In this document: piece after piece, positions 13,723-35,987 of the stretch
How the letters are laid out: every line of letters starts with the position of its first letter
Position numbering within the stretch: position 1 is the stretch's first letter
Source: Spizellomyces punctatus DAOM BR117
Taxonomy: Eukaryota
Length of the DNA: 64,000 nt
Strand: one strand, 5' to 3'
NCBI GenBank assembly: GCA_000182565.2
Contig: KQ257465.1
Program-made: the position numbers and the translations under genes
The notes under the pieces: generated by a model
Told to the model about the DNA's origin: nothing
Databases searched by the model: none
What the model saw: the letters and a program-made list of their open reading frames with translations, nothing else

Positions 13723-13755
13723 TAGTGCGGAGCCGATTGGTATTGGCACTAGTAC
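13723..13755 (+). repeat. Fanzor element left TIR
   Basis: TAGTGCGGAGCCGATTGGTATTGGCACTAGTAC matches the reverse complement of 44837-44869 at 31/33 positions. Confidence 0.95.
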
Positions 13756-13886
13756 ATAGATTCCAACCAATTTAATCATAATTTTACTCGATTTAGACTC
13801 ATGAACTATGGTTTGATCCAAAAAATCCTATATAAGTTGTCGTCGCCCATTTTCCCAGGCTTTCATCTTTTCCCACAGATATCATC

Positions 13887-14548
13887 ATGCCGCCAAAGAA
13901 AAAGCAAAAGCTTGAAAAACTCGACAAACCCACCTTACATACCTGCAACAAGACTTCCTTTGCAAAAGCTTTCCTGCCAAACTATCGCCAACGGCTTCTA
14001 GATTACATCGCCATCATCCATCAACTCGCCGACCACGCTTCCCATGCTCTCAAATTCTACATCCTATCTGCACCAACCTTCACCGTGAATGAGGAGACCA
14101 TCGAAGCGATTCTCTATCTTCTCAACAAGGGGGAGGCTTGGCATCCAAGAAAGGAAGCAAAGAAGGCATGGCGGGATTGTTTGCTGCCATATGTTCAACG
14201 CTACTGCCACATCGTCAGCTTCGTTCATCCAAATCTACAAAAAGAGCAGCAGTCAATCAATTACCTGACAGCGAGTATGATGACGAACCTGAAAGTCAAC
14301 GTTCAAGAGCATTTCATGCAGATGCTCCTTCGGTACATTAATCTGCAGCTCGATGTGAAGGGACAGAAGCAGCGACTGAAAAGCGATGCGCGAAACGCTT
14401 TCTTTGCTCGTCTTCGCTACTTGAAGTCAATTTTCCTTTTTGATATCGTGCCCGAGTCGCTCGATGACTTGACTGCTGAAGAGAGTGAACTTCTAGAAGA
14501 GATTTGGTCGCTCGATCTGCCTTTTCTTATTGACCATCCACTCGCCTA
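13887..14548 (+). pseudogene. Fanzor1 nuclease, fragment 1 (NLS and N-terminal region)
   Basis: MPPKKKQKL..KPTLHTCNKTSFAKAFLPN..HPLAY closely resembles the SpuFz1 N-terminus as recalled; interrupted by an LTR at 14549. Confidence 0.92.
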
Positions 14549-15148
14549 TGTAACGACGAGGACGTCTTCGAGAGATCGCGAGTAAGCCCAAATCGGACGC
14601 GGGAAGCACGAATCGCGTGACCAACTCCACCGATTGGGTTACCGCGACCGAAAAAACCGGTTCGGAGAATGGCAATTGGCGCATTAGATTTCAGCGTGCC
14701 TCGTACAACCTGTGGAGGCCCGAGCCAGTGCGGAAAAGGAAGAGATCGGTACCGCCACCAATAAATCAGTTGCGGTGCAGCGACACCCATTAGTTTAGTT
14801 TAGTTTAACAGTTTATCCAAGAATCTTGTATAAAAAGGATGTATTCAATAAAATAAGTCGGGGGCAGAAGCCGTAGCGACAAAAAATCCCCATAACTCGC
14901 TTCTCAACTCCAATCTTAGGTTAACAGGAACCTAACAGAGCGCTTCAACGGCCTGATCACCCGTACCGAAGCCTCTAAATCCTGCTCGGTTCACAACTAA
15001 CCGACTCTCCTTGCCTCTCGCCCTCAAGTCGCTACCGACGCCCAAAGAAAGGATTTGGAGACTACGATTCCTAGTACGGACACCCACACAACCTGCTAGG
15101 AGACCCAAGTTGTCTTTACTGTAGTCTACCAACAAAAAATCCGTTACA
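14549..15148 (+). repeat. 5' LTR (600 bp)
   Basis: Starts TGTAACG and ends CGTTACA (7-bp inverted termini), directly followed by a TGG primer-binding site; contains TATAAA and AATAAA motifs. Confidence 0.88.
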
Positions 15149-15162
15149 TGGTGGAGAAGCGC
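15149..15162 (+). promoter_or_regulatory. Primer-binding site, probably tRNA-Ala
   Basis: TGGTGGAGAAGCGC abuts the LTR and is complementary to a ..CTCCACCA tRNA 3' end. Confidence 0.7.
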
Positions 15163-15303
15163 GACGAACCGCCTTCCCCTCTCAAATTCAGCTGAAAACC
15201 TTATTCGGTCGTACCGAAACTCTTGCGCAAACCGAGATCCGCTCAGGTAGCTACTCGGAAACCTTTTCTCTCGTTTCGGAGACAGAACTTCACGAAACCG
15301 AGA

Positions 15304-18300
15304 ATGATGCCGGTCGAACGCTCACCAACGCGAGGCCGCTCACCTGTGATCCAGACTCGTAGTCAGGGTCCTGCGGAGGACGTCGAAGTCCCTCCCGCAA
15401 CACGCCCAAGGCGTTCAGGGACCACTTCCGTCGAACCGGAAGCCCCTAACTTGGCCACGATGGCCTCTGAAGTGGCAGCGTTAAAAGAAGACATTGCCCG
15501 CTCGACTGCTGCAACGCAGTTGGCAACTCAAAACCTTACGGAACAGCTTCATAGGCTTTCCGAACGTCAGACAGCGGCGGATGAGCGCCTCGCACGAGCC
15601 TTAGAAGCCCTAGCGCATCGCCCGCTGCCTGAACAACCTCCCATAGCACGAGCTACAAGAGAACGGTCCGCAACCCCGTGGGAAACGGCGGACACACCAA
15701 GGGAGCGTACCGAACCAAGTTTTTCAGGTGCGGTGCCTCCAATCCAAGTGCCAGCGGCCCCGTGGGCCAGCGACACCAAGGTCGATTCCTTGAAAGCAAA
15801 GGACGTACCCGAGTTTACGGGCAGAAGAAACCAAGACGTTGAAGAATGGCTTAACAAAGTCCAACTTCTTCAAAACGTTAGCGCAACGTCGGATGCCAGG
15901 ATGGTACAGCTCCTACCAGCCATGATAGCCGAGAAAACCCCTGCTGACGCTTGGTTTTACACTCTGGAAGCCCAGGAAACTCGCTCATGGACCTGGAAAA
16001 GGTGGAAAGAGGAACTGCTTCGAGAGTTCCGAGATCCCCTAACCGAGTCCAAGCGCAAAACCGAATATGTGCGCTGCCATGCGAACCCCAAAGAATTTCG
16101 CAGCTTTCTCGCGTTCATCGACCACAAAACTCATCTCCGGCGCCTCGCTTATGGCGACCGGGCAAACATAGAATGTCCCGCTGACCAGCATTTCGACCTA
16201 ATAGTCGAACAATTGCCCAGCGACATCCAAATCATGGTCAAATCCTGTAACGTCACGAACCTGACCAAATTAAAAGACTTCCTGCGCCTTTATTTCGGCT
16301 CTGATGACACCAGAAAACGAGACCCTTGCTACAGCGGTGCTGCAGAAGCTCAGAAGAAGTCACAAAAGACCGGAACCGACAAAGGCCCTAAGCAGACGGC
16401 TCCGCATAAAACCGGAAACCCCGAAAAGGGTCGCGATGGTCCTCAGAAGATGGTTCCGGACCCCAACAAGGAACCACCGGCACCCTGCAAATTCTGTCAG
16501 AAAAAGCATTGGAATGTTTTCTGCTGGCAGAACCCGAACCGAAAAGATCCTGAAGATGGAAAGAAAGGACCATATGGAGCACCCATGCCCTCAGGTTGGA
16601 AACCCAAACAGGAATCGAAGAAGGCGTACATAGTGGAGCTGGACTCGACGTCCGCTACCACCGAGACTCTTTTTTCGGCTTCGGAACTGGAAAGAACGGA
16701 AGCCGCTAATCAAGGATTCCACACCATCGGGTTCTTTCATTCACCCAAGCACTCGGAATCAACAATTTTGATGACCGCACCTCTTTCCAAGGTCACGGTG
16801 ACCAAGGAAGAGGACCCCCGCACGCCCACGCAGGGCTGGGACCGAGTCTGGGACAACATAGCCATCATCTGGGGCACCCCGCAAGTGGCTCTGATGATGG
16901 GCAACAACCCCCGCGCGCTCAGCTTCTTCGCCAAAGAACCGAAGCGAGGCGCCGGGCACCTCGGGAACGACCCCTACGCAGTCGCGTGGAGTTCCCACCA
17001 CCTCTACATCGCTGCCGCAGCCGAAGCTGACAAGGATCGAATCCTGCGAAAGGTCCGAGAAGACGGTACCCCTCGTTTGATTCTCCTTGCCTGGATAAAG
17101 CTCGACGAGCGCGAGAAATTCTTGATGTGGAGCTCTGAAGATCCTGTTATCTTTGATGCGTACGCCAACCTGCAACTGGTGGCATTTCTCCTGACAGGCA
17201 ATATCGTTCGCTCAGACTATTATTATCGTCGCGGAAACCCCAAATTTCGGCACGTTAAAGACCATCCACGTCTCCAAAGACACGAAGAGAGCGAACGGAC
17301 GCGTATAGTCATGCTGGCTATCGAACAAGTTGCTCGCCAGAATAAAACAACAAAACCACAAAACGACAAAACTAGAGAACACTTTGAGAGTGTGATCAAG
17401 GCTACGGAAGCAACAATTAACGACATCGCGCCCCATTTCGAGATCGCGGTGCCTTCTATCAACGCCTTCTACTCAGTAGATTTAGGCGATGTACTCAAAA
17501 GCCAGACTAAGACCCAAACGCAGCCTTGCTGGACGCTAGCCGTCATCGCGCAGCTCTGGGCACCTGTGGTACTAGACACAGGGGCCTGCGAGTCTCTGAT
17601 TTCCGACACGTACCAAGGCCTTCTGTTCTCCGAAACCGATTTGCAGGATGCGGAAACGATGGCTTTCAACGGCATTGGTGGACGTATCTCATCTACCAAG
17701 ACAGTATGCCTCGAAACTTCCCTCAGAGGCCGCGGCGGAGAATACCTGACTTTCCGCGCCTACTTTCGGGTCATCGCGTACGGGAAACCTCTCATCATCC
17801 TAGCCAACGACGTTTTGGGACATTTGAAACTCCAAACCTTGGTTCAGGAACCCCCGTTACCCAGTTTCGCGGTGACGCTCAAGAATCCAGACATCCTTAT
17901 CCCCTGCTCCATAACGGATGAGCTGGACACCGATCACATGCGCGGCACGCCATACAAGACCAAGCAGGGTGAATTCATGAAGGATGTGTCAATGCCACGG
18001 CTGACCAAAGCCAAAGCTCAGAAGTCTAGATTAACCATGTTAATCACGGGACAGACGCGCGTGGCAGCCCAAACTTTTCTCATCGAAAACCCTCTTGAGG
18101 CCACCGCTGCTAGCTCAACGGTCCCGTTAGGCCTCAAACTGTCCACCGCGACCCATAATTCGGTTGCGGACCCCGAAGAGAACATTTCCAAAGAAGAATG
18201 GCAGACACTTCGGAACAAATGGAACCTCGACTCTACGGAGAGGGCTCCAGGGGCCTTCGAAGCCCAATTAAAAGACGCGGAACGTTTCCACGTCGATCTC

Positions 18301-19176
18301 AAGCGACCCAAACCCGTGGTCTGGGCCCTAATCAACATTCTACGACACTTCCATCAAGCCTTCAGCTATGAGGGTCATCTCATAGGGAACTACACCAAGA
18401 TTCCTTATGCGCCTCGATTTATCTCGGCTCCGCCACCCCTTTCGAGGCCACGGTCGTACTCTCCGTTGGAGCGGACAGCCCTCGAGACGGAGCGAGACAC
18501 CATGATGGGGCTTCAGAGGTGGAAACGAACCACCGAAGTAACCTTCGCCAGCGATCCTGTTATCATTCGCTATGCAGACAAACCCCCGCGCGTAGCCTTC
18601 GACTATCGCCGAGCCAACGACTGCATGGCCTGGGATCCATATCCCTTTCCCATCATGCTCGACATCCTGAACTGGATCGTCGCAGTCCCATTCCGATACA
18701 TATCGGGAGGTGACGCAAACAAAGGATTCTACCAAATCGCCATCACCGATGCGTCGGTACGCAAATGGCTCGCGCTCAGACTCCATGACGGCATCTACGA
18801 ACCACTCTTTATGCCCTTCGGACCCAAGACTGCCCCCTCGCACTTCTGTCGGGTGATGGACGACACCTTGGGTCCCTCCAAATGGCGAAATATCAACAAC
18901 TTCGTCGACGATATCCACACACGAGTGGAGACAGCCGCGGAAGCCCTAGACGCCATCGCGGACTGGCTCGACCGCTTTTCCAGAGCCAAACTCACCCTAA
19001 GACTCGACAAGTGTCAATGGCTCTTTCACCAGCTCACGGCCCTCGGTTTCGTTGCCTCCTCTCAGGGTCTCGCTACCGATCCAGACAAGGTCGCAACCAT
19101 AGTCGATTGGCCACAACCCAAATTCATAGGTGACCTGAATTTTCCCTGCCTACTGTCGGTTGTCAAGCCTATATGA
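15304..19176 (+). CDS. Gag-protease-RT polyprotein, truncated after the RT core
   Basis: Gag PEFTG..VEEWL, knuckle CKFCQKKHWNVFC, protease VLDTGA, RT motifs RVAFDYR, DANKGFYQ, MPFG, NFVDD, DPDKV. First ATG at 15304; the last ~12 codons come from out-of-frame Fanzor DNA. Confidence 0.9.
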   Translation: MMPVERSPTRGRSPVIQTRSQGPAEDVEVPPATRPRRSGTTSVEPEAPNLATMASEVAALKEDIARSTAATQLATQNLTEQLHRLSERQTAADERLARALEALAHRPLPEQPPIARATRERSATPWETADTPRERTEPSFSGAVPPIQVPAAPWASDTKVDSLKAKDVPEFTGRRNQDVEEWLNKVQLLQNVSATSDARMVQLLPAMIAEKTPADAWFYTLEAQETRSWTWKRWKEELLREFRDPLTESKRKTEYVRCHANPKEFRSFLAFIDHKTHLRRLAYGDRANIECPADQHFDLIVEQLPSDIQIMVKSCNVTNLTKLKDFLRLYFGSDDTRKRDPCYSGAAEAQKKSQKTGTDKGPKQTAPHKTGNPEKGRDGPQKMVPDPNKEPPAPCKFCQKKHWNVFCWQNPNRKDPEDGKKGPYGAPMPSGWKPKQESKKAYIVELDSTSATTETLFSASELERTEAANQGFHTIGFFHSPKHSESTILMTAPLSKVTVTKEEDPRTPTQGWDRVWDNIAIIWGTPQVALMMGNNPRALSFFAKEPKRGAGHLGNDPYAVAWSSHHLYIAAAAEADKDRILRKVREDGTPRLILLAWIKLDEREKFLMWSSEDPVIFDAYANLQLVAFLLTGNIVRSDYYYRRGNPKFRHVKDHPRLQRHEESERTRIVMLAIEQVARQNKTTKPQNDKTREHFESVIKATEATINDIAPHFEIAVPSINAFYSVDLGDVLKSQTKTQTQPCWTLAVIAQLWAPVVLDTGACESLISDTYQGLLFSETDLQDAETMAFNGIGGRISSTKTVCLETSLRGRGGEYLTFRAYFRVIAYGKPLIILANDVLGHLKLQTLVQEPPLPSFAVTLKNPDILIPCSITDELDTDHMRGTPYKTKQGEFMKDVSMPRLTKAKAQKSRLTMLITGQTRVAAQTFLIENPLEATAASSTVPLGLKLSTATHNSVADPEENISKEEWQTLRNKWNLDSTERAPGAFEAQLKDAERFHVDLKRPKPVVWALINILRHFHQAFSYEGHLIGNYTKIPYAPRFISAPPPLSRPRSYSPLERTALETERDTMMGLQRWKRTTEVTFASDPVIIRYADKPPRVAFDYRRANDCMAWDPYPFPIMLDILNWIVAVPFRYISGGDANKGFYQIAITDASVRKWLALRLHDGIYEPLFMPFGPKTAPSHFCRVMDDTLGPSKWRNINNFVDDIHTRVETAAEALDAIADWLDRFSRAKLTLRLDKCQWLFHQLTALGFVASSQGLATDPDKVATIVDWPQPKFIGDLNFPCLLSVVKPI

Positions 19177-19627
19177 AAAGCATGGATTTCGACGGTTCAG
19201 TGCAATCCCTCTTCGTCGGTCGCTGATTCAGTCCCATATTCGCATCGACACGGTCATTCTCTACGCCCACATCCTCTGCATCACCCGCCAAGAAGCACAA
19301 GCCGTAGAGAAGGTCGATTTATGGATGCGCGTCTGCAATCTACGTACCAAGGCTTTTCGGTCTCACCGCGATATGCAGTTTGAAGGCTCGATCACGACGG
19401 ACGGCACCTCGGTGTCAGTTTACTTGAAACATCCTGAAGCTGACAAGTATGGAAAGCACAGCGGCGGAGGGAAGAAGTCAGCAAAGACCCTAGAAGCTGA
19501 GGTGAAGGCAGTATATGTGGAAAACAACTTATCTGCTTGTCAAGAGAACATTGTCGTTATCGATCCAAACAAGCGCGATCTTCTCTACTGCCAAGACAAC
19601 AAGGGCACCATCTTCCGTTACACCGCC
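19140..19627 (+). pseudogene. Fanzor1 nuclease, fragment 2 (includes RuvC-I Asp)
   Basis: FPAYCRLSSLYEKHGFRRFSAIPLRR..ITTDGTSVSV..VVIDPNKRD..FRYTA; ends at the CCGCC TSD. Confidence 0.92.
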
Positions 19628-19675
19628 TGTGGTAGTGCATGCCTGTGGTATATACCACAGGCATGCACTACCACA
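19628..19675. repeat. Perfect 48-bp terminal palindrome (left)
   Basis: TGTGGTAGTGCATGCCTGTGGTAT|ATACCACAGGCATGCACTACCACA. Confidence 0.98.
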
Positions 19676-19695
19676 GTGCCCATAGTCAGCTTCAC

Positions 19696-19855
19696 TGTAC
19701 CAAAACCCATAGTATGGAAGAATGTACCAAAACCCATAGTACGGAAGAATGTACCAAAACCCATAGTACGGAAGAATGTACCAAAACCCATAGTACGGAA
19801 GAATGTACCAAAACCCATAGTACGGAAGAATGTACCAAAACCCATAGTACGGAAG
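19696..19855 (+). repeat. Subterminal 27-bp tandem array, 6 copies (7 in the right TIR, ~43818-44004)
   Basis: Unit TGTACCAAAACCCATAGTACGGAAGAA. Confidence 0.95.
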
Positions 19856-20011
19856 TGTTTGCCCAATGCATTGGAGTGTTTCAAAGTGTTTCGAGTCTTC
19901 CAAGGTGTTTGCCCAATGCATTGGAGTGTTTCAAAGTGTTTCGAGTCTTCCAAGGTGTTTGCCCAATGCATTGGAGTGTTTCAAAGTGTTTCGAGTCGTC
20001 CAAGGTGTTTG
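19855..20011 (+). repeat. Subterminal 50-bp tandem array, ~3 copies (mirrored in the right TIR)
   Basis: Unit GTGTTTGCCCAATGCATTGGAGTGTTTCAAAGTGTTTCGAGTCTTCCAAG, containing the palindrome CCAATGCATTGG. Confidence 0.95.
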
Positions 20012-20174
20012 TCCAAGTCCGGGACTATTGATGAAGGGATGATATGCGGTATAGTGCACTTACATGTCAAATTTTACGCATCTAATATTTCACGTGTCCA
20101 AACTCCACCTAATTCAAAGTCAACACTGGTTCTAACTTGACATTCGCTTCTTCTCAAGACTCCATGATATCACT

Positions 20175-20426
20175 TCATCTTGGGACTCCATCTCTCAGCC
20201 TTCGACATCGTAGCTTGTGGACTCGTCTGTGGACTCGTCTCTCCACATATCTCTTCCAACAAGGATAGCATCGAAACTTGTATCCTTTCTGTCCAATTCT
20301 TCGCAATTGAAACCTCCTTCCACAATCCATGCAGATTTGCTCTAGACTTTGGTGTCCATTGTTCCCTGAAAGCAACCATTCCAATATCCATCTCGGCACC
20401 AGCACACAATCATTCACATAGTCCAT
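20175..20426 (-). CDS. TIR-encoded 83-aa basic zinc-ribbon protein (left copy)
   Basis: CMDC..CYPC motif, Arg-rich tail, ACAATGG start context, upstream TATAAAA. Confidence 0.5.
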   Translation of the reverse strand: MDYVNDCVLVPRWILEWLLSGNNGHQSLEQICMDCGRRFQLRRIGQKGYKFRCYPCWKRYVERRVHRRVHKLRCRRLRDGVPR

Positions 20427-21507
20427 TGTTAATTGTTGTATATGGGAATCGTTTTTGAAAAGAAGGCTTCGAGCTGGGGGGACTGGCGGGACCGGCGACC
20501 CTCTTTTATAAACGGATAAGGAACTCTCCCATCTTATCGATAAGATGGTTCACTAGTCCTCTCATCCTATCGATATAACATGTTCGATCTCTCATCGACA
20601 AAGTGTTGATTTTTTTGCCCTTCATGCATAGTAGAGCATTTGTAAGTGTGCATTTAATTATGTAGAGCAGGATGTAGAGCCGTGCACACTTGCACACTTA
20701 CACACTTCCATTTGGGTTGCTTTAGGGAAAAAGTTACTTAATACTAATATTATTATTAGTATGTCCTCAATTTCTCTCTCAAAGAACCTGAAAACTAAGT
20801 GTGCAAGTGTGCAAGTGTGCATGTAGACCATTCTTCATTGATTTCTTTCCGACTTTCACTAGAGAACAATGGAAGACTAGCTAATCATTTCTGATATTAT
20901 CTACAATCACCTAGTCGCACACTTCCTACACATTTCCATTTCTAAATGTGCAAGTGTGCATTTGTCTAATTCACTTTTGACATCCTCACTGCTATCCGCG
21001 TCCCTCCATGCCTGTGGTGTGATAGGTTTGCTATCTGTACCATCCGCCTGATATAGAAATAGCATGAACTCTTTGCTACTGGGTTTGCTTTAAACTCACT
21101 TTTTACTTCTGAGTTGCGTAGTTGCGTTTGATGGAAGATGGTCGTAGAGGCAGCAAGGAAAGGATCAGTGGAGGGATTCCAAGAGGAGAACTAAAGCGAG
21201 TTCGGATACCATCACGTGATCTAAAATTTGAATGCATTGCGCAAAGTGGCACAGTCAACCTAATGCCAAAGTCTATCGGCTGCACACTATATAATCGAGT
21301 GCCACTTATGTAATGGACCCGTGCATCGCTGCACAAAAAGCTGTGTTGGCATCTGTGTTTCAGATGCATGTGGTTTCTTTTTCGTTTCTTTTTGTGGTCA
21401 GTCCAACGAAAGAAGCCATGAAAAGGAAAGGACTGTATGACCCAATGGGGATACAGTTCTCCATCTGCATCCCCATCTTTTATAGAGAAAAAAAAGGGAA
21501 GCCGCGT

Positions 21508-21822
21508 TCACCCAATTTCCATCCGCATTTCTAGAACAAAGAGCCTTTCATTATGATTGTGTCCTAAGAGAACGCAATCCTGCAAGATGGCCAAGTAGCC
21601 GGAATTTCGAAAGCAGATTTCATCCAGTTTCTTCAAGTGGACGATTGACATTATCTCTTTGAAGATGTGTTCGTTCTGGTCTGTTTTCGGAAGAAACAAT
21701 ATGATACGTTTTTTATCTCCTGTCATCATACCTCGACAGTACCTCCAGAATTTATCCATGTCACCCTTCACAGCGTCCTTGATGTTCAATACTGAATGAC
21801 CTTCAATATCCGCGCGTCGCAT
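21508..21822 (-). CDS. Viral hypothetical protein (104 aa)
   Basis: ATG ORF with A-rich leader, co-oriented just downstream of the fibre gene. Confidence 0.45.
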   Translation of the reverse strand: MRRADIEGHSVLNIKDAVKGDMDKFWRYCRGMMTGDKKRIILFLPKTDQNEHIFKEIMSIVHLKKLDEICFRNSGYLAILQDCVLLGHNHNERLFVLEMRMEIG

Positions 21823-21874
21823 TCTTATCTTGCATAGCTTCTTTTTTAAATGATGGCAAATGAAGTTCCTTTCT

Positions 21875-24800
21875 TTAAGACCCTAATTCCATTACCTCTA
21901 TAATGGTTACATCTGCGCTTGTGTCCGGTGCTGCATTTACTGCTGAAAAATTGGTAAAATATGCTACATCAGGAACTAACCCCGACACAATGAATGAGGC
22001 ATAAATTGTTCTGTTCACTCCAGCATTATAGTTAAAATCACTGGAAAAGACTGACGGCATCGAACCGGCATTAGTTCCTAGATACACATTGAGTGTTCCT
22101 CCTGCATTATTGGTGCCATGCAAGTTGATGGTATAGCGTATCAACGCCCGGCCGGCTGTAGAAACATAGAACGTCTTTGTTCCGCTACCAGTTGTGATTA
22201 CATCTTTAGTTAGCATTTTGAACACCTGAACCTTTGGAAACTGTACTTGAGATGACACCCAGGCTTGCGTCGCACAGATCTGACCATTCGAGTAAACTGG
22301 CCCATTTGAATACAAGTTGCCTCCTGCAACAACATGTGCACCAACCGCAACTCCTCCATTCACAACCAATGCGCCCGTTGTACTCGATAACACTGGAGTG
22401 GTGCTTTCAACAACGACATTACCTGTGTTAGGATAAATGTAAATACCTTTTGCTCCCTGTGATTGAAGGCGTACGGCACCGACGTCATTCCTGAGCGTGA
22501 GTGTATTAGCGCCTCCATCTACTGTTCGATTTGAGCCATTCATAAAAAGAACGGAAGAACCCGCGGCCGTCGTTAAATAGTAAATTGGTGCTGCATTCGT
22601 TCCTGTGTCTACATTCTTGACCTGAATGCTTCTTAAAGCATTTACACTGGTGTTTCCGATGATGACATCTCTATCAAAATAAGCATTTCCGGTTGCTCCA
22701 TTAAGCGACATACTTCGAATAGATGCGTTGCTTTGTCCGACATAGAAATTCAGGTCTACATTGTTACTACCAGGCAAATAGGATTGTATAGAACATATAT
22801 TTTGCATTGCGTGTGAAAACATGAGGGTATTGGTTTGGCCAACACTATAGTTAGTATTTTGGATGGTCATTTGTGCCCCAGAAACCCATAGTTTCTTAGC
22901 GATTCCAAGCCCTCCTGCAACTTGAAAAGCACCCATCGTTGAGGATGTAGAGTCAGTGGTCGTATTCAACAGGAGAGTACCTGTATTACCTAATACCATC
23001 CATTGGGTGCCGTTGTTCATGGTGCTAAAATATAGTGGGGCCGCACTATTAGTGGTATTATTCAATCCGCTTTGAATGTAATTAGCACCGCTGGTGCTAA
23101 CAAATCACATACAACTAGGAGTTGCACCCGTGTCCATTAGATAATGCGATACACCACCCGACTGGCCTTGCATGATATTTTTTGAAATCCCTACACCTCC
23201 TTTAACCTGTAGAGCACCTGTAGAGACTGTTGTTGCATCGCTTGTATCATTAGCAACAATGGTAGCGACAGACAAGGGTGTAGTCATTGTGATTATATCT
23301 TGTTTCGAAGATAGCGATGTTTGCAATGAAGATATGTCTGACCCGTAATCGACAATGTTCAAAATACTTCGAACTTCAATGTCGTTTTGAAGAATAAGAC
23401 CATTGACATCATCACCCATGACAAACATATTGCTCATCGGTTGCATGGATGCAATGGAATCAAGTAAAGGACTTGCATCTTGCTTACCAGATAGGTCAAC
23501 ACTCGTTACACCCAGAATGTCTCGTACCTCTGCTGGCGTCTTCACAGAAAAGGTAGTTCCATCATTTCCTATGATAAAGGAATTTGTTGATGGAACAAGA
23601 CCACTTAAAGAGGACAACAAAGGACTCGATGGTTGTAATGTGGAAATCGCTGAGGAAACATAACTCTGTGTTGCGACTTGAGCACTATTTGCAAAAATGT
23701 TACCACCGACATAAAGCGCCTTACCAATTCCAACACCACCCTTGACTTGGAATCCCCCTGTTGTTGACGATGTAGAGTCGGTTGTGGTATTCACTACCAC
23801 GGAACCAGAGGACAATATGTCTAAAGTAGATGTGGTATTTGTAGTCCCAAAGCGGAAGTTCGTACCTATAGTCCGCATACATACATCATTGGCCAAATCA
23901 TTGAAAAACATTTGACCATTGGTTGATGGACTGAACGAAACAAAGTCTCCGGCATTTGTCCCTGTACCCCATCTGAAACCTAGTCCTGTACCTTTACCAC
24001 TGTATACCGAACTTCCAACATAAAGATTTTTAGAGACCCCGACTCCACCTGCAACCTGTAATGTGCCTGTAGCCGTTGACGAGGAGTCAGAAGTACATGT
24101 AACTTGGGTTATTCCGGTGTTGGAAATTTTGAAGACATAGCCGATGTTGTTATAACTGCAATTCAATCCGAAGCCCCCTGCGGCTAATACTCCATCCGGC
24201 GAAGCCCCTGCTACGCGAAGCCCCCATGTCACATTCGATGCCGAATTGACCAGCGACATGAATGTTGGCGAAGATCCATTTTGAACACTCAAATAACCAT
24301 TTGCAGTAACAGAAGCAAGACTCAGATTAGTTGATGTAGTGATGTTGTTCTGTTTCCCAGAAAGCAGTGTGTTCACACCAGCATTTGTAGCAATATCGAG
24401 GATGCCTTTTACTTGAGTCGAAGTGACATTATCCAAAGTTGTTCCCGTTGAGGAATACAACCAAGAGTCAGGCTGCACCGTCATCATGTACAGGCTATTA
24501 GTTGTAGCGTTCATAGGCTGCTTCGATGCGAGTGCAGTAGTGACGGCATTGTTGTTGTTATTAACTGTGGTTGTCAATGAAGACAAGGTTTGACTTATTG
24601 GAGCGGTGTTATCAATTACAAATTTCTGAGTTGCAACTTCAATACCTCCGATGTAAGCCATTCCACCAATATATGCATCAGTTGATACTCCTAGCCCGCC
24701 GCTCATAACAACATTCCCTGTGGGGTCCACTCGAAAAACATATCCCTTATCTTGGAAAGAAGAGTATAGGCCGAGAACTCCAGAAGGTAGGTTTCCATTT

Positions 24801-27457
24801 GCAGTACCGGAAACATGAATTCCCCATGTCTGTGCTGCGCTAGTGTTCCCAAGTGTAATTGCAGTAGCATTGGTGTTTGAATTCTGTACTGTTAAACCGC
24901 TCAGGTTAAGCGAACTTGTTGCGCTTATTAATGGCTGATATGCGCTGAGGATTTCATCTTTGGGTACAATCCGGAAAAAACCGCCATTTCCACCCATCAA
25001 AAAAGTGCCATCGGCCGGGGTCAGACTACTGATATTGTCAAGCAAAGGAGATAAGTTTTGCTTCAATTCTAATCCTGTTGTTACAAAGGATTCCGTGGCT
25101 ACTTTCACTCCATTTGTGTATATATCACCACCAAATGTAACATTATTCGAAGTTAATGCCGTTATCTGGCTTGTCACCCAAGGCTTGATCAACTCGTTAT
25201 CATAATCCCTTAGCATAGAGAGGTTGATTGCTTGCTGAGGGTACTCATATTTGATGCCTCGATAACATGAAGGCGTATCAAACAAGAGACGAGTACAACC
25301 TCCAATAGGATCAGAAGCAATTGCGACATTGCTCCCGGGTTCAAGTGGTGGCATGAAGGTAACAGGGTCTATTGGTTCATAAACGGGGTTTCCATCGCCA
25401 TCGAGTATAGGTTGGCCTTCCGCATCTCGTTGAACCTTACGTTTGCGTGACCCTCCGAAAATCATTCCCCAAGGGAACGTTGAGATGATTGGGAGGATGG
25501 AGTTTACAGCCATAGGGACTGTCAAGGGCGGGGAGACCATCGCTGGAAAAGGTACGGTTGATAATGGAGTTGCTCTGGACAAAATAACAGTGTTGCCTGA
25601 TGGAACATCCGTTTTTAACACTTCTGTGGTATCAGTCTGTTCAGTATTATCGGTATCCCTTTGTTTCGATAACGGCGTAGGGTCAATGAGTGTAAAGTTG
25701 TAGAGCGGGTACGAACCTGTTATTATAAGGTTTGGACTGTTACTTACGAATTGTGGCAGAATCATGTTATACTGAATGGTATTGCCGACAACGACCACAC
25801 TCCCGTATGAATTGGTTGATCCGATGTAATTGCCTTTCAAAGTATCCCCCACCCGAAGAACGGTATCGCTTCCTGTAAGAGAACATGAAATCAGATCTCC
25901 CGAAACTTGCACGCCATTAATACCTCTTAGGTTCGTTGACAAAATCGCACCATTTTTTTGCAGTCCAATTCCCGCAGCGATGTTTGAACTCAGAACACCA
26001 TTGTTTAGAGTAAGATCGGGTGACTGTGCTGTTAAACTCAGTCTGAGGTCGTTGCCCACCCTGGTTACTCCTTGGGAGGCGGTAAACTTATCGCCTATGG
26101 TCCCGCGGCTGAGCATCGTTAAGCCAGAGTTGGCATCAACTTTTAGATCGAGTTGAAGGTCATTCTGTACTCTCTCAATACCATTGCTGCAAGTCAGTAC
26201 GTCTTTAATGGTATCTGCTTTGACCATTTGGAGACAACTGCCAGCCTCGCATTTGAGAGAGAGCACCACATCATTGGTCGTTCCCAGTCTAATGGAGACG
26301 CCATTAAAGTCCTGAAAAATGTAGCCACCTGTTAACTGGTTACCTATAACTCGAACTGTTTTGTTATCAACGAGCACACCGATTTCGCGTCTTCCACTGA
26401 ACTCTGGTCCGACAGCAATAGCCCCGGTTTGGCTGCCTTGGTAAAAATTGGCCATGTAATCTTTACTCACTGCATAAGAGCCTCCTCCAATAGCAGGTAA
26501 TGTTCCGCTTAACTTTACATTCGGGACACGCAACTCTTGAAGCGTGGACGAATAGGTGAATGAAGGACTTCCTGAAAAACCGTATGTTAGATTCCCATAC
26601 AGGATTTGTTCATAGCCGGGTGATTTCAGGGATAATCTAGAGCCGGCTTGAGTGAATGTAGAGGTATCAGTCATCAATCTAATTGCCGTTGTGTCTACTT
26701 CCCCTAAAGCATCTGTTAGTTCACTCAGAGATGAGAAGCCGAAATCTAGCCAACTGCTTCCTATATCTAAGATTGAGTCTGCTCCAGACGATGTTTTTAT
26801 CGCCCCGAACGCCTTGAACAGTTGACTAGTATTGGTTTCCAATTCGTCTTCATTGTTCACCTTTAGACTTTTATGAAGTTTGATTCCAAGGCCATTATCG
26901 CGATACAATGGTTTCTTGAGTGTTTCCAAAGGCGGAGGTGGTGGAAAGTTTACTGATAAGCCATTTTCAGTAATGGATAATGAATCGTCTGCACGAATAC
27001 CAACTGTGCGTATTTCATAATCCCTATACAGTGGAAACTCATAATTGTCCGGAATCACTTTTAGTTTTTCTTGTTCTACAGTTAAAGATGAATCGTCAAT
27101 CTGAAGTTGGATATCATGATCCTCTTTCGAGTAGACAAGAGGTTGATGCACAGATGCGTCGATTGTGGTCAACCGACTCTCCTCATCAATTTCAAGCCTC
27201 TTGTTATCAACATTTAATCCAATGGATACGACGCCATGTTCATTCGTACAAGGTAAGCATTCAGAGGTGGTTTCAACCTCGTTGACTTTAAGTTCACCAT
27301 TTTCATTAGATAAATGCTTAAATTCTCCAACATCGAACCCCTTTATCTTGGCTCCAGCATCGAAGCCTACCATTTCGCCTGTCACATATGGAGATAAGAG
27401 ATTTGTGTTATCTATGGTACGTAACCCCGTTGAATTTCTACTGTTTATTCCACTCAT
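21875..27457 (-). pseudogene. Virion fibre/spike-like protein, ~1860 codons with one in-frame TGA (23105-23107)
   Basis: The 1450-aa and 396-aa ORFs are in the same frame (..PSCM*FVSTSGANYIQSGLNN..). Gly/Ser/Thr-rich, with five (S/T)xxTG(A/G)xQVxGGVG(I/V)xK-type repeats and N-terminal shaft-like repeats. Confidence 0.75.
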
Positions 27458-27553
27458 GTTATATTGTAGCTAGGAAGTAAAATTTGAGGAGCTTGGCAAA
27501 AGACGAAGCGCTCGACGGTGCCCATCTTATCGATAAGATGGGCGATAAAACCT

Positions 27554-29026
27554 TTACACTATCTTCTGTTTCTTCCTCGGTGGAAGTGTGACATCCTCTG
27601 CACCTTTTCTTCTTCTACTTCGAACTGTAGGTTCCACACGCAGTGTCGATTGTGTTTGTGCAGGAGGGACAACATATTCCGCTTCACGTTGTCCTCTTAG
27701 ACAAGCGAGAGGACGTACTTCGCTTCCCAAGTCTGCGGTTAGCGGTACTAGCGTTGGAGGGTTAAGTGCCGTCGGTGCTAAGACTGGATCAACATTTACC
27801 CTTCTCCTGCGGGAAGCACGTACAGACCTCTCGACTTCTTCAGGATTTTGCAACACTATCTCCTCTAGAGGAGGCTCCTCTACATGATCGGCAATTCTCC
27901 GTCTTTTTACCGTCTGCTTATCATCTGGTTGTTTATACTGTCTTCTTTTTGTACCATGAGGAGCAACCCCAGCAAAAATCACATCCGGAGGATGTGGAGC
28001 AACAGGTGTTGCTGGAGGAGTTACTGGCTCTATCGCATCATGCTCCGCTCCTCCTGTTTTTTGCTTCTTTTTATTCCCTCTAGGAATCGGCGGGGGTGCA
28101 TTTGCTTTCCTTTTAGAACCTGCTAATATGGTTGCTTCCTTACCTTTGAAGTGAAATGGTGTTCTTGCAGGTACCGAGACAAACTGATCATTGATGGAGT
28201 TTCTCTCTAAAACATCCGCTACACCAGATGGATCATGGCGGTCATTCAGAAGTACTGTATCATGTGGAATTGTTGCGCTACGAGGCATTGTTTCCACGGA
28301 GGCATCGATTTGAGGAGATTCCACATGTATCTGTTGAGTCGACCCAGGAAATCCTCCTGGAATAGGTGGAATGTAACTATCAGCCATTAGATGCGCTGGC
28401 AGTGAAACTGCAATGCCAGTCGCATGATTGACACGGTCATTTCCAACTGCATCTCTTCGTATCTCTGTTTCTCGAGTCAGGATGACTGGCTCTACAGGAA
28501 CACTGTTTACATTGCGTGGTTGCGCCGGTATCTCATTTCCATTCGGTGGTGCCTGAAACATTAAGCCTGTTTGGGAAGTCACTGATGCTGGATAGGAATA
28601 CACATGCCCTGATTCATCAGGAATCGGTAATCCTGAAAGGGAATTTTGCGTTCCAATGGTCAATGCACTCCCTTGTCGACTTGGAGTAATCGAATCAAGA
28701 TACTTCTGTTTCTTACGATAATCTTCTTCTGCTTTCACATACTCAAGACCATCCTTATAAGCCTTTGTTGTTTGTTGGGCAGCCGATAATTTCAGAACAT
28801 CAGAAGACGAGAGCCTCGGTTCATATTTAGGTTCAACGTAATTGGTCTTTGTCGCTAAGTCTTTTTGATGGATCAACCTGTTCCACGAATACACTACTTG
28901 TGGTCGCCCGAGGTCATCGACCTTTGAATAGTCTAGAGCGACCCCAACTTGTCTCTTTTGCAAATTAGGAATCGGTGGCGAAACAGCATATGTATCACTC
29001 AAGTAATTGGCTCGGTAATATGCCAT
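27554..29026 (-). CDS. Viral Pro-rich protein with basic NLS-like clusters (possible core protein)
   Basis: 490-aa ORF with KRK/RRRR clusters and C-terminal PPRKKQK; lies in the structural module. Confidence 0.6.
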   Translation of the reverse strand: MAYYRANYLSDTYAVSPPIPNLQKRQVGVALDYSKVDDLGRPQVVYSWNRLIHQKDLATKTNYVEPKYEPRLSSSDVLKLSAAQQTTKAYKDGLEYVKAEEDYRKKQKYLDSITPSRQGSALTIGTQNSLSGLPIPDESGHVYSYPASVTSQTGLMFQAPPNGNEIPAQPRNVNSVPVEPVILTRETEIRRDAVGNDRVNHATGIAVSLPAHLMADSYIPPIPGGFPGSTQQIHVESPQIDASVETMPRSATIPHDTVLLNDRHDPSGVADVLERNSINDQFVSVPARTPFHFKGKEATILAGSKRKANAPPPIPRGNKKKQKTGGAEHDAIEPVTPPATPVAPHPPDVIFAGVAPHGTKRRQYKQPDDKQTVKRRRIADHVEEPPLEEIVLQNPEEVERSVRASRRRRVNVDPVLAPTALNPPTLVPLTADLGSEVRPLACLRGQREAEYVVPPAQTQSTLRVEPTVRSRRRKGAEDVTLPPRKKQKIV

Positions 29027-29091
29027 ACTAGGTTTTTTCCTTTGCTATGTAGAGCTGAAAAAATAATATCTCTTCTGTTCTATAAATCAAG

Positions 29092-29391
29092 ATGCCTAAT
29101 TGGTTTTCTAAAGCGAAAGCAAAGGCAAATGTTCTGTGGAATAACGCGCCGAGTTTTCTTACAAAGGCCCGCAACTTTGCTAACAATGCTGTGAAGCATG
29201 CTGTTACAGTAAATAAACATGTCCAACATGTGAATAAACAAGTACAAGAATCTCCTTTATTTTCACAGGGTATTCGGGAAAAGTCACACAAGATTTCCAG
29301 TCATGGTGAGACTGGGGTGAGGAAACTACAAGAACTCCACAAGAACGCTGACGACTTTGTGGAACGGGTAAGGGGAGGTCCTATCGAGTAA
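29092..29391 (+). CDS. Small basic amphipathic viral protein (99 aa)
   Basis: N-terminus WFSKAKAKANVLWNNAPSFLTKARNF; TATAAA just upstream; adjacent to the capsid gene. Confidence 0.55.
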   Translation: MPNWFSKAKAKANVLWNNAPSFLTKARNFANNAVKHAVTVNKHVQHVNKQVQESPLFSQGIREKSHKISSHGETGVRKLQELHKNADDFVERVRGGPIE

Positions 29392-29490
29392 ACCTATTTT
29401 GTTCACTTCACAGCGCTCCTTCGAGTTTGAAAAGCAAGAGCTTCCTTTTTTACAGAAAATGTTTATGCATCGAATAATTCAAAAATTACA

Positions 29491-30744
29491 TCACACCACA
29501 GTTACTACTGCTCCAATAGAAAGTGTAACATTCTCGTGGTATGACGTTACCAGCCTAACCTTTTGGGTCGGTGCGACTGCGTGTTGGGTGTGTATGCGCA
29601 TAATTCCGTCACTGCCAGTAAATGAGAGTGCCGCATTACTGCCTTCATCCTTTGATGCAAATGACCAGCCAAATGAGAATGCCTTGGAATCATAGTCGGC
29701 GTATGACGTATCCATCTCCCCGAGTTGGTCAAAGTTGTTATTTGACAACTGGGTGACAAGCAGTGTTTGATTATCACTTGGTGAATGCGTAAAACCCTGG
29801 TTTCCAGCAGGAATGGTAAGATTAGGGCCTAGTGAAATTCTCCACTCGCGTAGTCCCTGTGAAGAATACATTAACGCTTTATCTTTTGTCTGGTCATTGA
29901 GAACGTCGTCGTCCACAAAGGCTGATTCGAACCCAACCAGTGAGCGAACACCGCTCATGTGGAGAAGGAATGTATTTCTGTTACCACCGGAGCAAGCATT
30001 CTCGGTCTGTGTTGATCTAACATAGTCATAGAATATTGACTTACCATCTGATATAGCACGAGTCGCGTTAACCACAGTAGTAGGCGGTGGTGTAATGTAT
30101 GGAACTAAACAGCGGATATTGGAAACCCAAATCTCACCTACACCAGCACTTGTAAAAACTGTGTTCGGGTCTGCGAGGGTGATGATAATTTCCAATGCCT
30201 GATTACTCAGACTCCAAACTGGGAAGTACTGGTCATTCGATGGATGGCAGAAACCGACTAAGGGGTGGTGATTAATGGAAATGGTACTTGATGTTGCAAA
30301 GATATTGGTGTTTCCATATCCGGAAAGTTGGCTCAACAATTTCTTACTACCGGCGGATAGATTGCGGTATGTTTGTACTAGATAAAGAGGATAGTTTGGA
30401 ATGTTAACAACAGTTTCTCCCCCTGCTTTGATGGTTAATGATTGAATAATGGATTCTAAGCCAAGATACATGTTTTTAACACCTGTACCAGGAGTTATCA
30501 AGTTTCCTGCATTATCGTATGCAGAAACATCCATGGAGAGAATGAGTTTTTGCAGAATGAAACTCACCGAATTAGAGTCACAAGTTATCTTGATTGGGGT
30601 CAGGTTACGACTTTTTGTCATATATGTGCTTTGACCAATCGGACTATAGATTGACACGCCTTCCCCACGGGGGTCTGAGTACCCCCTCGCGAACGTATTC
30701 GTCGAGAACAGCCAATTACATGGTACTGCAACTTCTTCTGACAT
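29491..30744 (-). CDS. Major capsid protein (predicted double jelly-roll)
   Basis: 417 aa, beta-strand-like pattern throughout, ends Y..VTLSIGAVVTVV; clustered with penton-like and packaging ATPase genes. Confidence 0.72.
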   Translation of the reverse strand: MSEEVAVPCNWLFSTNTFARGYSDPRGEGVSIYSPIGQSTYMTKSRNLTPIKITCDSNSVSFILQKLILSMDVSAYDNAGNLITPGTGVKNMYLGLESIIQSLTIKAGGETVVNIPNYPLYLVQTYRNLSAGSKKLLSQLSGYGNTNIFATSSTISINHHPLVGFCHPSNDQYFPVWSLSNQALEIIITLADPNTVFTSAGVGEIWVSNIRCLVPYITPPPTTVVNATRAISDGKSIFYDYVRSTQTENACSGGNRNTFLLHMSGVRSLVGFESAFVDDDVLNDQTKDKALMYSSQGLREWRISLGPNLTIPAGNQGFTHSPSDNQTLLVTQLSNNNFDQLGEMDTSYADYDSKAFSFGWSFASKDEGSNAALSFTGSDGIMRIHTQHAVAPTQKVRLVTSYHENVTLSIGAVVTVV

Positions 30745-30787
30745 GTTTGTTTACTGAATTGCAAAGGAAAAAAAAATGGAAGATTTT

Positions 30788-31336
30788 TCAGCCAAAAATG
30801 CCACCATAGTTGTCCTCCTCAACATTGTCCTCCTCAAAGAACGGTGATCTAGAGTCAAAGAATGGTTCATCATCACCGAATTTCAAAATTACGCTCTTTT
30901 TTTTAGATGGACGTATTGCTGCTGGCTGCGCCTTTGCTGCTAGTTTGGTTCTCTTGCTCCTAGTTGTTGTTGGTGTTGGTGTTGGTGTTGCCTTCATTCC
31001 TCGCTTCGTGTTTCGTCGTTCTTCCCTTGCTAATCGCTTCTGTTCCTTCTCCTCTTCAAGGATGCGTTTGGCCTCATCGATTTTACGCTTCTTCTCTTCC
31101 TCTTTCCTTTGCTCTTCACATTTCGCCTGCATCTCACGTAACTGTGCGGCTCGGGCCTTTTGGGCCTTCTCCAATGCTGCCCTTTGCTTATCCGTCATTG
31201 GACGTTTTACTTTCTGCGTAGGAGTTTGTTCTGGTTTCTTTTCTGCTTTTTGAACAGGTGCTTGTTCAGCGGGTGATTCTACATTCTCTTGTGGAATGGT
31301 ACTCGATTCTTGATGATCTTGAGTTTGCTCTTCCAT
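30788..31336 (-). CDS. Charged coiled-coil viral protein (182 aa)
   Basis: KRPMTDKQRAALEKAQKAR followed by an E/K/R-rich helix; A-rich leader. Confidence 0.6.
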   Translation of the reverse strand: MEEQTQDHQESSTIPQENVESPAEQAPVQKAEKKPEQTPTQKVKRPMTDKQRAALEKAQKARAAQLREMQAKCEEQRKEEEKKRKIDEAKRILEEEKEQKRLAREERRNTKRGMKATPTPTPTTTRSKRTKLAAKAQPAAIRPSKKKSVILKFGDDEPFFDSRSPFFEEDNVEEDNYGGIFG

Positions 31337-31382
31337 TGTTTTTTCTTACTTAGCTTCTGAGAAAAAAAAAATTAGACATCAA

Positions 31383-32102
31383 TTAGACATCCGCAACATC
31401 GTCTGAAAATGCAAACCGAACGGTTAACGGGCTGTTGAGTGCAACTTCCAAACCGGTCATCAAGTCAATAAGATAGAATTCGATTTTGGAGATAGTGTCA
31501 TCAACAGGGAGCCATTCTCCCGCATCATTTGTCCAGGTGATTACATCTCCAAAACTATCTGGGACAACAGTGGCTACTACTGATTGCACGGAATCATCGA
31601 AGTCACTGAGGTAGCGGCTTCCCTTGACTTGAATGTTGCTGGTTAAAAGCACCAGGTAACTTCCCGAGAGGTTAACTGGATTCTTCAATGTTACCGTTTG
31701 GTAATACCCAGTCTCGGTCCATCTTGACATTCCTGTAAGTATGTACGCCGTTGTTCCTCTCGACGCTGGCAAAATTTTGAATTTCTTAGGCCCTGTCGCA
31801 GTTATGGAAATCTTCCTGCTCACACCATCATAAGTAACAGTATAGCCCTGTGTTCCGGCCGTGCTCATAGCGTCAGCCACTGCGTTTGGAAAATTGGCGA
31901 TACTATAGTTCCCAGGAGCAATGGTTCCACTATAAATCGTGCTATCTCCTTCCTCTGCAAAGGCTATAGTATTGTTTGCAGAGGAAACAAGGTCCCAATC
32001 TTGGAGAAAGGAAACCGAGAGAACCTTCATCATTTCCATTCTCCGGGGGGGAATACTGAATGATCGAGATTTTAAGGAACAATATGTGACTTCGTTAATC
32101 AT
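31383..32102 (-). CDS. Minor capsid (penton-like) protein
   Basis: 239 aa; NNTIAF..TIAPGNYS..; C-terminal ISKIEFYLID..LTVRF pattern typical of PLV/virophage pentons; neighbours the ATPase. Confidence 0.68.
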   Translation of the reverse strand: MINEVTYCSLKSRSFSIPPRRMEMMKVLSVSFLQDWDLVSSANNTIAFAEEGDSTIYSGTIAPGNYSIANFPNAVADAMSTAGTQGYTVTYDGVSRKISITATGPKKFKILPASRGTTAYILTGMSRWTETGYYQTVTLKNPVNLSGSYLVLLTSNIQVKGSRYLSDFDDSVQSVVATVVPDSFGDVITWTNDAGEWLPVDDTISKIEFYLIDLMTGLEVALNSPLTVRFAFSDDVADV

Positions 32103-32143
32103 TTCCTTTCCTTCCTTTATGTAAAGAACAAGGAAATTTTAAA

Positions 32144-32857
32144 ATGGGATATAAGCCACGTGCAATTTTTCCTGTGCATAAAAAGAAAAGAGATCCAAGA
32201 GTTCCAGAAGACATTGCTAGCCTCCCTATATGCACGACTTTGATCGCACCTCGAAAAAGTGGGAAGAGCGCTCTTGTTTGTGGTCTGATAAATGATGTAT
32301 ATGCCAAGTTAGTCGATCGAGTGATAATAATGTCAGATACGGTTGCATACGACGCATCTGTGAAGGTATTGGCTGAAACCACAAAGCATAAAAACATCTA
32401 CTATACTGATGATGTGTCTAATGCATCCATAGCAAAGATTGTTGATGAACAAAAAGCGGCACCTGACAAGTCACTTCTATTGTTCATCGATGATTCTGGA
32501 GATAGTGCCCAGTCAAAGGAATTAAACAAGGAATTGTCCAAACTCTATACGAAAGGGAGACATTTCAATATTTCTACAATCGTAGCCATTCAGAGTGTGA
32601 CTGGGCAGTTGAGTAATAAAATGAAGGGATGTTCGACTGAATTTATTATTTTTCGTAACAATGCGGAGGATCTGAAACTCCTTGCTAAGATGCTCACTTC
32701 TGCTTACAAGACATATGAAGAGGTTCTTGCCTATCTTACTGAATCTACAAAGGAACCCTATGCTTTCTGTTACATGAATTTAGCAGCAAACAACGCCAGA
32801 GAAATGTATCGATACTGTGACTCTATTGGGTTTCACGATTACTTTCTAAACAGTTGA
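32144..32857 (+). CDS. A32-like (FtsK-HerA) genome packaging ATPase
   Basis: Walker A APRKSGKS, Walker B LLFIDD, KGRHFNIS and IVAIQ motifs. Confidence 0.92.
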   Translation: MGYKPRAIFPVHKKKRDPRVPEDIASLPICTTLIAPRKSGKSALVCGLINDVYAKLVDRVIIMSDTVAYDASVKVLAETTKHKNIYYTDDVSNASIAKIVDEQKAAPDKSLLLFIDDSGDSAQSKELNKELSKLYTKGRHFNISTIVAIQSVTGQLSNKMKGCSTEFIIFRNNAEDLKLLAKMLTSAYKTYEEVLAYLTESTKEPYAFCYMNLAANNAREMYRYCDSIGFHDYFLNS

Positions 32858-33208: not shown

Positions 33209-33427
33209 CGTTGCTCAGATGGTAAGACTCTTGCAATTGGGAAAAGTCATTGGAGGGAATCGAGCATGGCCTTTTAAGCAAAACAGAGGAAATCATCGAT
33301 CGATTGAAATGATGTAACTGCACATCAATAATCACACATCTGTCGTATTTCCATCGAAAGACTCGAAGATGTGACTCTATTGGGTTCAAGGATTATTTCT
33401 GAGCGGAAATGTAAACAGAATAAGAAG

Positions 33428-34708: not shown

Positions 34709-34768
34709 AAATTATTATCTGCTGCACAAATGGACTAGAGCTAAACTTAAAACCACAAAGCAACAACC

Positions 34769-35866: not shown

Positions 35867-35987
35867 GTGGTCTTTGACAGAAGGTGAATAAATTTTTTAC
35901 ACTACAGATAAACCCATATCCTTAGCTCGCTCCTCTTATATAGACATTTTATTTCATGTTTTATCGATAGATTTTCTCCATCAACCT

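Follow-up and report, generated by a model that had tools for sequence, protein, structure and literature searches.

In Halocafeteria seosinensis, palindromes are described within the terminal inverted repeats (TIRs), beside the target duplications, of endogenous virophages of subtypes 1, 2, 5 and 6 and of a Polinton-like virus (PLV) of subtype 4, and they are reported in all complete copies of these four virophage subtypes and one PLV subtype, together with replication genes other than pPolB and with certain rve integrases (bioRxiv 10.64898/2026.07.28.741278). The preprint, of July 2026, proposes hairpin priming for these palindromes and calls for experiments. In the open-access literature, outside which most subscription papers lie, it is the only report found that addresses terminal palindromes in PLVs or virophages, and no publication was found there that proposes, for PLVs, a protelomerase or an integrase opening hairpins. 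The terms hairpin and palindrome are absent from the main texts of three studies of chytrid MELD viruses and PLVs (PMC8502044, PMC7805220 and bioRxiv 10.64898/2026.06.19.733378), and neither is mentioned in the main text on the EMALEs of Cafeteria burkhardae (PMC8547959).

A window of 64,000 nucleotides (64 kb) of contig KQ257465.1 from the chytrid Spizellomyces punctatus DAOM BR117 contains a virus-like element of 24,445 bp which is a fungal example of the terminal-palindrome feature described months earlier in the 2026 preprint. Like the Halocafeteria elements as described there, it is about 24 kb long, encodes an rve integrase and non-pPolB replication genes, and carries at both ends a palindrome placed at the tip of the TIR and at the duplication (48 bp here, 52 nt in Halocafeteria subtype 5). 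Unlike them it resides in a fungus, and the likeness is one of description, not of sequence comparison. Another S. punctatus locus, SPPG_00918-00930, has been tied to pPolB, MCP, mCP and ATPase matches (PMC7805220, supplement), and its pPolB match suggests that it is a different element, of the pPolB type. The features of the present locus are the following.

13723..44869, plus strand: Fanzor1 transposon, host of the virus, with 33-bp inverted ends (13723-13755 and 44837-44869)
19623..19627, plus strand: left target-site duplication CCGCC, 5 bp, supported by empty-site reads
19628..19675, no strand: left terminal palindrome, with TG start, CA end and TATATA centre
19628..21052, plus strand: left TIR, 1425 bp
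19679..19866, plus strand: 27-bp subterminal tandem repeats, six copies at the left end, each with TACCAAA
19855..20016, plus strand: 50-bp tandem repeats inside the TIR, three copies
21875..27457, minus strand: two ORFs (381 aa and 1450 aa), possible fibre-like virion proteins
29491..30744, minus strand: candidate major capsid protein (MCP), double jelly-roll like, from the Atlas feature search
31383..32102, minus strand: probable minor capsid (penton) gene, 239 aa, between MCP and ATPase
32144..32857, plus strand: A32-like packaging ATPase (Pox_A32, E 6.5e-07)
33428..34708, plus strand: rve integrase with C-terminal chromodomain, DDE intact
34769..35866, minus strand: Xer/Cre-like tyrosine recombinase, 365 aa, without a family match of its own and assigned by fold comparison
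35988..36509, plus strand: receiver domain of a response regulator, cargo (E 8.1e-21)
36612..38636, minus strand: D5/P4-type primase-helicase, by family match
38845..39388, no strand: non-coding arrays of 34-bp and about 66-bp repeats between the divergent helicase genes
40234..42708, plus strand: SF3 helicase (DUF5906), 824 aa, by family match
42622..44072, minus strand: right TIR, 1451 bp, one 27-bp unit more than the left
44025..44072, no strand: right terminal palindrome, 48 bp, perfect, same sequence as the left
44073..44077, plus strand: right target-site duplication CCGCC, 5 bp

A first-pass annotation had described a perfect 48-bp palindrome at both integration junctions and taken it for an opened hairpin. 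The observation is borne out, since the two 48-mers, which form the outermost bases of the TIRs, are identical and each is its own reverse complement; the count of 24 nt between the dyad centre and the CA end had also been right. No palindrome longer than 24 bp is present in the 64-kb window besides these two, and in 100 windows simulated with a third-order Markov model perfect palindromes reach at most 22 bp. That the left copy extends to 50 bp is due solely to a chance pairing between the final C of the duplication and the first inner G. Folded as single-stranded DNA, the 48-mer forms a stem of 22 bp closed by a loop of 4 nt (-28 kcal/mol, z = -10.8), and none of 200 shuffled 48-mers is as stable. 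The palindrome is real, well defined and mechanistically suggestive, and the interpretation first given to it is partly supported.

The virus resides in a Fanzor transposon whose SpuFz1-like gene spans 13887 to 44776, its C-terminal 233 aa matching SpuFz1 (PDB 8GKH, E 1.3e-139). This match and the nearest homologue of the recombinase identify the host as a Spizellomyces. The transposon was split first by a truncated reverse-transcriptase retrotransposon (ORF 15304-19176), for which no LTR pair is found in 13501-19627, and then by the virus. Sister Fanzor copies diverge at about 19136, and a host gene for a SET-domain protein (45441-47159) lies directly to the right of the Fanzor element. Each palindrome adjoins the 5-bp direct repeat CCGCC, as had been claimed, exactly at its first base. 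Three further bases (ACA) precede CCGCC at both sides; the duplication is read as 5 bp because only this reading keeps both ends symmetric (TG...CA). The Fanzor reading frame is continuous once the 24,445-bp element and one CCGCC are removed, and in a DNA run 23 reads follow the window up to 19627 and then continue in a sequence that resembles the right flank, six of the eight letters beyond this position being those of the right flank past the duplication. These 23 reads are empty sites in sister Fanzor copies. The restored frame and the empty-site reads together show that the junctions are those of a real insertion, which duplicated 5 bp of target and has TG...CA ends. Reads were placed on 18800-38600 from four of the 22 listed runs, and no joint at the palindrome appears in any of the four; as the DNA reads, at 38 nt, are shorter than the palindrome and the contigs are of low depth, this test is without power for hairpin, circle or scar joints. 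The RNA run, which may stem from another strain, gave 92 placed reads among the 26.4 million scanned, about 6% of its total.

That the palindrome arose by accident, through fold-back repair of a broken end or as an assembly artefact, is very improbable and largely refuted, as it is the same at the two ends, lies well inside one contig of 579 kb and is bordered by a clean duplication whose empty site is seen in reads, and as its Halocafeteria counterparts occur in all complete copies of five subtypes (bioRxiv 10.64898/2026.07.28.741278). Accidental annealing is nevertheless listed as an alternative in the same preprint, and palindromic words do give false fold-backs at contig ends. This is the case in metagenome contig L032, which ends in a 102-bp perfect palindrome (2959-3060) within a trimeric-autotransporter-like adhesin gene; this palindrome has nothing to do with the virus and arose in assembly, by folding back at a palindromic word of 18 bp. 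Contig L032 came from scans for the palindrome core, which yielded 21 viral and 20 metagenome loci, none of the 41 matching the 48-mer beyond 33 of 48 letters. It was rejected as a telomere site, like L034, L039 and L040, the sites lying inside an adhesin gene. Only one of the 41 loci, L031, has a tblastn match to an element protein (integrase, 23% identity, E 3e-13); in this metagenome locus the 18-bp core lies about 1.5 kb from the integrase-like ORF, and the palindrome stops at 18 bp. In eleven large AT-rich viral contigs (L001-L007, L012, L013, L017 and L018) the same 16-bp core centres palindromes of 28-44 bp, several per genome, which are probably operator-like sites unrelated to the element. 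No related locus with its ends was found among the viral contigs searched by recombinase, capsid, integrase alignment or ATPase, among the metagenome contigs or in the phage collection.

The insertion is young, since the two TIRs differ in 1.4 kb by three substitutions and two indels, one of 1 bp and one of a 27-bp unit. Diverged sister elements are present in the sampled organism, as shown by read contigs whose internal genes differ at 4-7% of their letters. Judged by its sequence, the element is a chytrid Polinton-like (MELD-type) virus: its size lies within 15-45 kb, it has TIRs, its 5-bp duplication falls in the 5-7 bp class, and it encodes both rve and YR enzymes. It is not a classical Maverick/Polinton, as no Pfam match to polymerase B (pPolB) is found among the 13 element ORFs scanned, the replication genes being primase-helicases only. 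The nearest Atlas clusters of the capsid candidate, which has no Pfam match of its own, lie at 0.97-0.98 and are mostly viral, and in some of them part of the members bear a Capsid_N (15-18%), DJR-like (10%) or Capsid_NCLDV (13%) domain; the double jelly-roll assignment comes from this one source. These neighbours are PLV/NCLDV-like, and Pfam gives no match to a virophage-type maturation protease. The gene at 31383..32102 is probably the minor capsid gene, a candidate by position and size that has no significant match, while the 381- and 1450-aa ORFs, which match no family, may be fibre-like in view of their repetitive, low-charge sequence. The N-terminal half of the SF3 helicase (40234-41310), whose motifs may resemble those of the PolA-type polymerase-helicase fusions of virophages, gives no fold or sequence match to a PolA-like domain (pLDDT 39.8 for a single-sequence model of the 824-aa protein). 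The receiver domain at 35988-36509 is intact, stand-alone and of the two-component type, and adjoins the recombinase gene.

Further repeats are scattered through the element. The word TATCGATA occurs seven times in the window, with 0.56 expected and none of 100 shuffles reaching this number, and all occurrences lie within the virus (20535, 20568, 27528, 32807, 35962, 43099 and 43132), three of them forming the core of palindromes of 20-24 bp (20529, 27520 and 43126). Several of these sites adjoin gene starts or ends, and the word is a candidate promoter or transcript-end signal. Short repeats of the GCACACTT type stand in inverted arrangement near the inner TIR edges (20678-20968 and 42709-42991).

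The integrase retains its DDE triad (D83/D143/E178), which is kept in all 15 aligned homologues (15 of 16 found, a 257-aa fragment being left out), and the solved structures nearest to its family are foamy virus integrases. It is 47-52% identical to the integrases of Powellomyces chytrid MELD viruses 2, 5 and 6. Its first 80 aa lack the HHCC motif, and retroviral behaviour may thus not carry over. A linear genome without a terminal protein needs closed ends, a circle or concatemers, and for an element with real junctions, TG...CA ends and an intact DDE integrase but no pPolB, the palindrome is most naturally read as a fold-back end. We tentatively favour, at somewhat below an even chance, the reading that each palindrome derives from a folded-back tip of the free genome, the hairpin being opened by the DDE integrase and copied flat at integration. 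The end-replication problem would then be solved by covalently closed (or snap-back) hairpin ends with their tip in the central TATA. The element's own integrase would bind the 24-bp hairpin arm as donor end and nick the base of the hairpin 3' of its CA end, and the freed 3'-OH would be joined to staggered host DNA (5 bp). Repair synthesis by the host, starting at the target 3'-OH, would copy the five bases of the target before the opened-out hairpin of 48 nt, so that the product would be the duplication plus the full palindrome at both ends. The nick after CA, strand transfer and fill-in that had been put forward would in their geometry rebuild exactly this junction, while the comparison then made with V(D)J P-nucleotides holds as an analogy only. 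Of this scheme the palindromes, the duplication, the empty site and the gene content are observed, whereas we infer that the free ends are hairpins, which enzyme nicks them and how the junction is repaired.

Several observations argue for hairpin opening by the integrase. The edge of the palindrome meets the duplication to the base at both ends and ends in CA, and replication genes are limited to primase-helicases. An integrase footprint is about 17-20 bp, and a palindrome arm is roughly one footprint. The range of palindrome lengths is narrow as far as the preprint describes them (48 here and 52 there), and the integrases of HIV-1 and foamy virus, the latter being the closest solved ones to the present family, are reported to cut after CA in continuous palindromic duplex in a DDE-dependent manner (PMC1905944). 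No other nickase is evident: neither a protelomerase-family gene (Pfam and fold search) nor an HUH-type motif was found in the element, the latter in 0 of 40 ORFs of at least 80 aa with a simple pattern that could miss a divergent one, and with no Pfam match either. The palindrome of a Halocafeteria PLV subtype that is said to lack the rve and Yrec pair points to the integrase, not to the recombinase. On the other side, in the published integrase cleavage CA comes first and TG follows after a short spacer, the opposite of the order needed here, and no hairpin is opened; a second TACCACA lies 8 nt from the tip of each arm and is not used as an end, and the reading names no enzyme that would re-form the hairpin from the flat provirus, the recombinase being Xer/Cre-like and not protelomerase-like. 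Hairpin-closed ends, an open duplex with the full palindrome and a one-palindrome circle would all fit the junction; an open-ended genome or such a circle would leave it identical, so that the sequence does not choose between mechanisms. An integrase nick after CA would be common to the hairpin-closed and circle forms. All mechanistic readings concern one insertion.

The open-ended form corresponds to a hairpin that serves for priming only, the 3' palindrome folding back as in parvoviruses, after which the ends are resolved and blunt TG...CA ends are joined. This is the model proposed in the Halocafeteria preprint (bioRxiv 10.64898/2026.07.28.741278); it would give the same junction, fits the missing pPolB and requires only standard integrase chemistry, and we regard it as possible, if rather unlikely. 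Terminal resolution would require a nick in the other strand with a free 3'-OH, for which the 40 ORFs searched offer no HUH motif. Tyrosine recombinases, for their part, leave a 3'-phosphotyrosine; a host or helper-virus nuclease could supply the resolving nick. The repeat arrays between the divergent helicase genes, which stand in partly inverted orientation and may be an internal replication origin, would also suggest internal rather than terminal priming.

Each 24-nt arm carries the heptamer TGTGGTA twice, 16 bp apart, a 7-bp direct repeat that is reached in 14 of 5000 arm shuffles, and therefore a CA both 8 nt and 24 nt from the tip, the element ending at the outer one. The TACCAAA of the 27-bp repeats is a one-letter variant, in the same orientation, of the palindrome heptamer TACCACA, and TACCA[A/C]A occurs eight times in a single orientation within the first 215 bp of the left end, and once in each 27-bp repeat. 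In addition, an 11-mer of the arm is found three times in the internal repeat region 38845-39388, a match reached by chance in 21 of 2000 shuffles of this region alone (picked after the match) versus 269 of 2000 element-wide. As the heptamer is common to the palindrome arms and the subterminal repeats, the arms are probably protein-binding sites too. That they are nothing else, the symmetry merely reflecting tandem, dyad-arranged sites for a dimeric end-binding protein such as the integrase or a helicase loader and the hairpin never forming, is quite improbable. Perfect 24-bp symmetry is not required by protein binding alone, and here it extends over all 24 positions, even the 9-bp spacer that separates heptamers from centre, a symmetry which binding sites rarely need; the end-replication problem would also stay unsolved. 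Moreover, perfect palindromes of differing sequence are described at the ends of unrelated elements (bioRxiv 10.64898/2026.07.28.741278). The alternative of just a binding site, which had been named as a possible refutation of the hairpin, hence holds for the repeated heptamer and falls short for the full symmetry.

The candidate enzyme for making hairpins is the 365-aa recombinase, whose gene lies tail to tail with the integrase gene. Its nearest annotated Atlas neighbours are Phage_integrase and ResT/TelK clusters, the ResT/TelK cluster at 0.94 with only 141 shared features. With 27 homologues (20 looked up, the seven named ones being chytrid proteins) its structure is modelled with confidence (pLDDT 88.6), and the model compares best with XerA (Z 13.3, rmsd 3.2, 165 aligned), XerH (Z 12.6; 4.7, 281), Cre (Z 12.4; 4.2, 264) and Tn1549 Int (Z 12.3), followed by TelA (Z 7.6; 7.9, 267) and TelK (Z 6.9; 7.8, 266). 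Foldseek ranks them in the same order without reaching E 0.001. A ResT-TelK_cat Pfam match is found in none of the 28 family members, and three of the 28 give a weak Phage_integrase match (best E 0.016). Membership of the protelomerase family was rejected by Pfam and fold search, and the clearly better fit to XerA, XerH and Cre marks it as an Xer/Cre-like enzyme by family. The protelomerase analogy of the first-pass annotation is weakened accordingly, the sole candidate enzyme fitting XerA/XerH/Cre (Z 12.4-13.3) over TelA/TelK (Z 6.9-7.6), while the similar size of the palindromes stands. Such a modelled fold bears on family and does not settle activity; two point mutations are reported to turn TelA from telomere resolution to Cre-like recombination (PMC13221069). 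Residues K219, R325, H350 and Y359 are present and conserved. Position 181 is His (codon CAT, 35324-35326), whereas all 27 homologues, including the 87% identical protein of Spizellomyces palustris (TPX56698.1), have Arg; with this invariant catalytic residue replaced, the present copy is probably inactive. The His codon is consistent with a CpG-type change, and the CpG observed/expected ratio is 0.78 in the element and 0.90 in the flanks.

With such an enzyme the circular form may be considered, in which two enzymes share one site. The palindrome would be loxP/dif-like, its copies being direct and inverted repeats at once; the Xer/Cre-like enzyme would excise a one-palindrome circle, leaving a duplication-palindrome-duplication scar, and the integrase would later nick the extruded cruciform after CA, at each of its two feet, and re-insert the circle, thereby doubling the palindrome. 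The same recombination could also resolve replication dimers. The fold, the catalytic residues conserved over the 27 homologues, the tail-to-tail gene order and the symmetric 6-bp centre TATATA are in line with this scheme, as are the closeness of telomere resolution and Cre-like recombination in TelA and the recurrence of rve and recombinase without pPolB in mid-GC EMALEs (PMC8547959), and a damaged recombinase in a young, intact copy would fit a trapped provirus. We nevertheless consider it improbable. The PLV of Halocafeteria subtype 4 is palindromic, although the PLVs there are said to lack rve and Yrec, and in the published view such recombinases integrate into giant-virus genomes (bioRxiv 10.64898/2026.07.28.741278; PMC8547959). 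There is no solo palindrome in the 64-kb window and no scar read, the latter with low power at 38 nt, and the circle junction would be a near-perfect palindrome of 2.9 kb. To a combined cycle, in which the DDE integrase opens a hairpin or cruciform at CA and the Xer/Cre-like recombinase excises at the same palindrome, we likewise give little probability. If true, one 48-bp site would be telomere, integration end and excision site, and a complete in-and-out cycle would be at hand for pPolB-less Polinton-like viruses.

The locus bears on how the ends of pPolB-less Polinton-like viruses and virophages are copied and how integrated copies leave. The present copy is complete and young, with both junctions and an empty site, in a chytrid genus that can be cultured, and it defines the exact substrates for testing which of the three mechanisms operates. 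If the integrase opens hairpins, this would be a new substrate geometry for retroviral-type integrases, linking hairpin telomeres to integration; if not, the locus is a fungal example of an already described feature.

Protelomerase systems comprise TelK, TelA and ResT and the N15-like linear phages. The element resembles them in the similar size of its palindrome, the AT-rich symmetric centre and the encoded protein of tyrosine-recombinase fold, and differs in that this protein is nearer to Xer/Cre/Int and in its integration by a DDE enzyme with a 5-bp duplication. With the Powellomyces chytrid MELD viruses, as described, it shares the chromodomain integrase, varied non-PolB replicases and a chytrid host (PMC8502044). 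The absence of pPolB, the long primase/helicase, the combination of rve and tyrosine recombinase and the TIRs are features in common with the mid-GC EMALEs of Cafeteria burkhardae, which are virophages, whereas the capsid here is PLV/NCLDV-like (PMC8547959). As in the cleavage of HIV-1 and foamy virus 2-LTR junctions (Delelis et al. 2007, PMC1905944), a DDE-type enzyme would cut 3' of CA; the junction there is 8 bp with CA before TG, while here TG precedes CA by 48 bp, an order in which the cuts would need a hairpin or cruciform. For the Halocafeteria elements the model set out in the preprint is hairpin priming after excision, not hairpin opening by an integrase or a recombinase acting on the palindrome.
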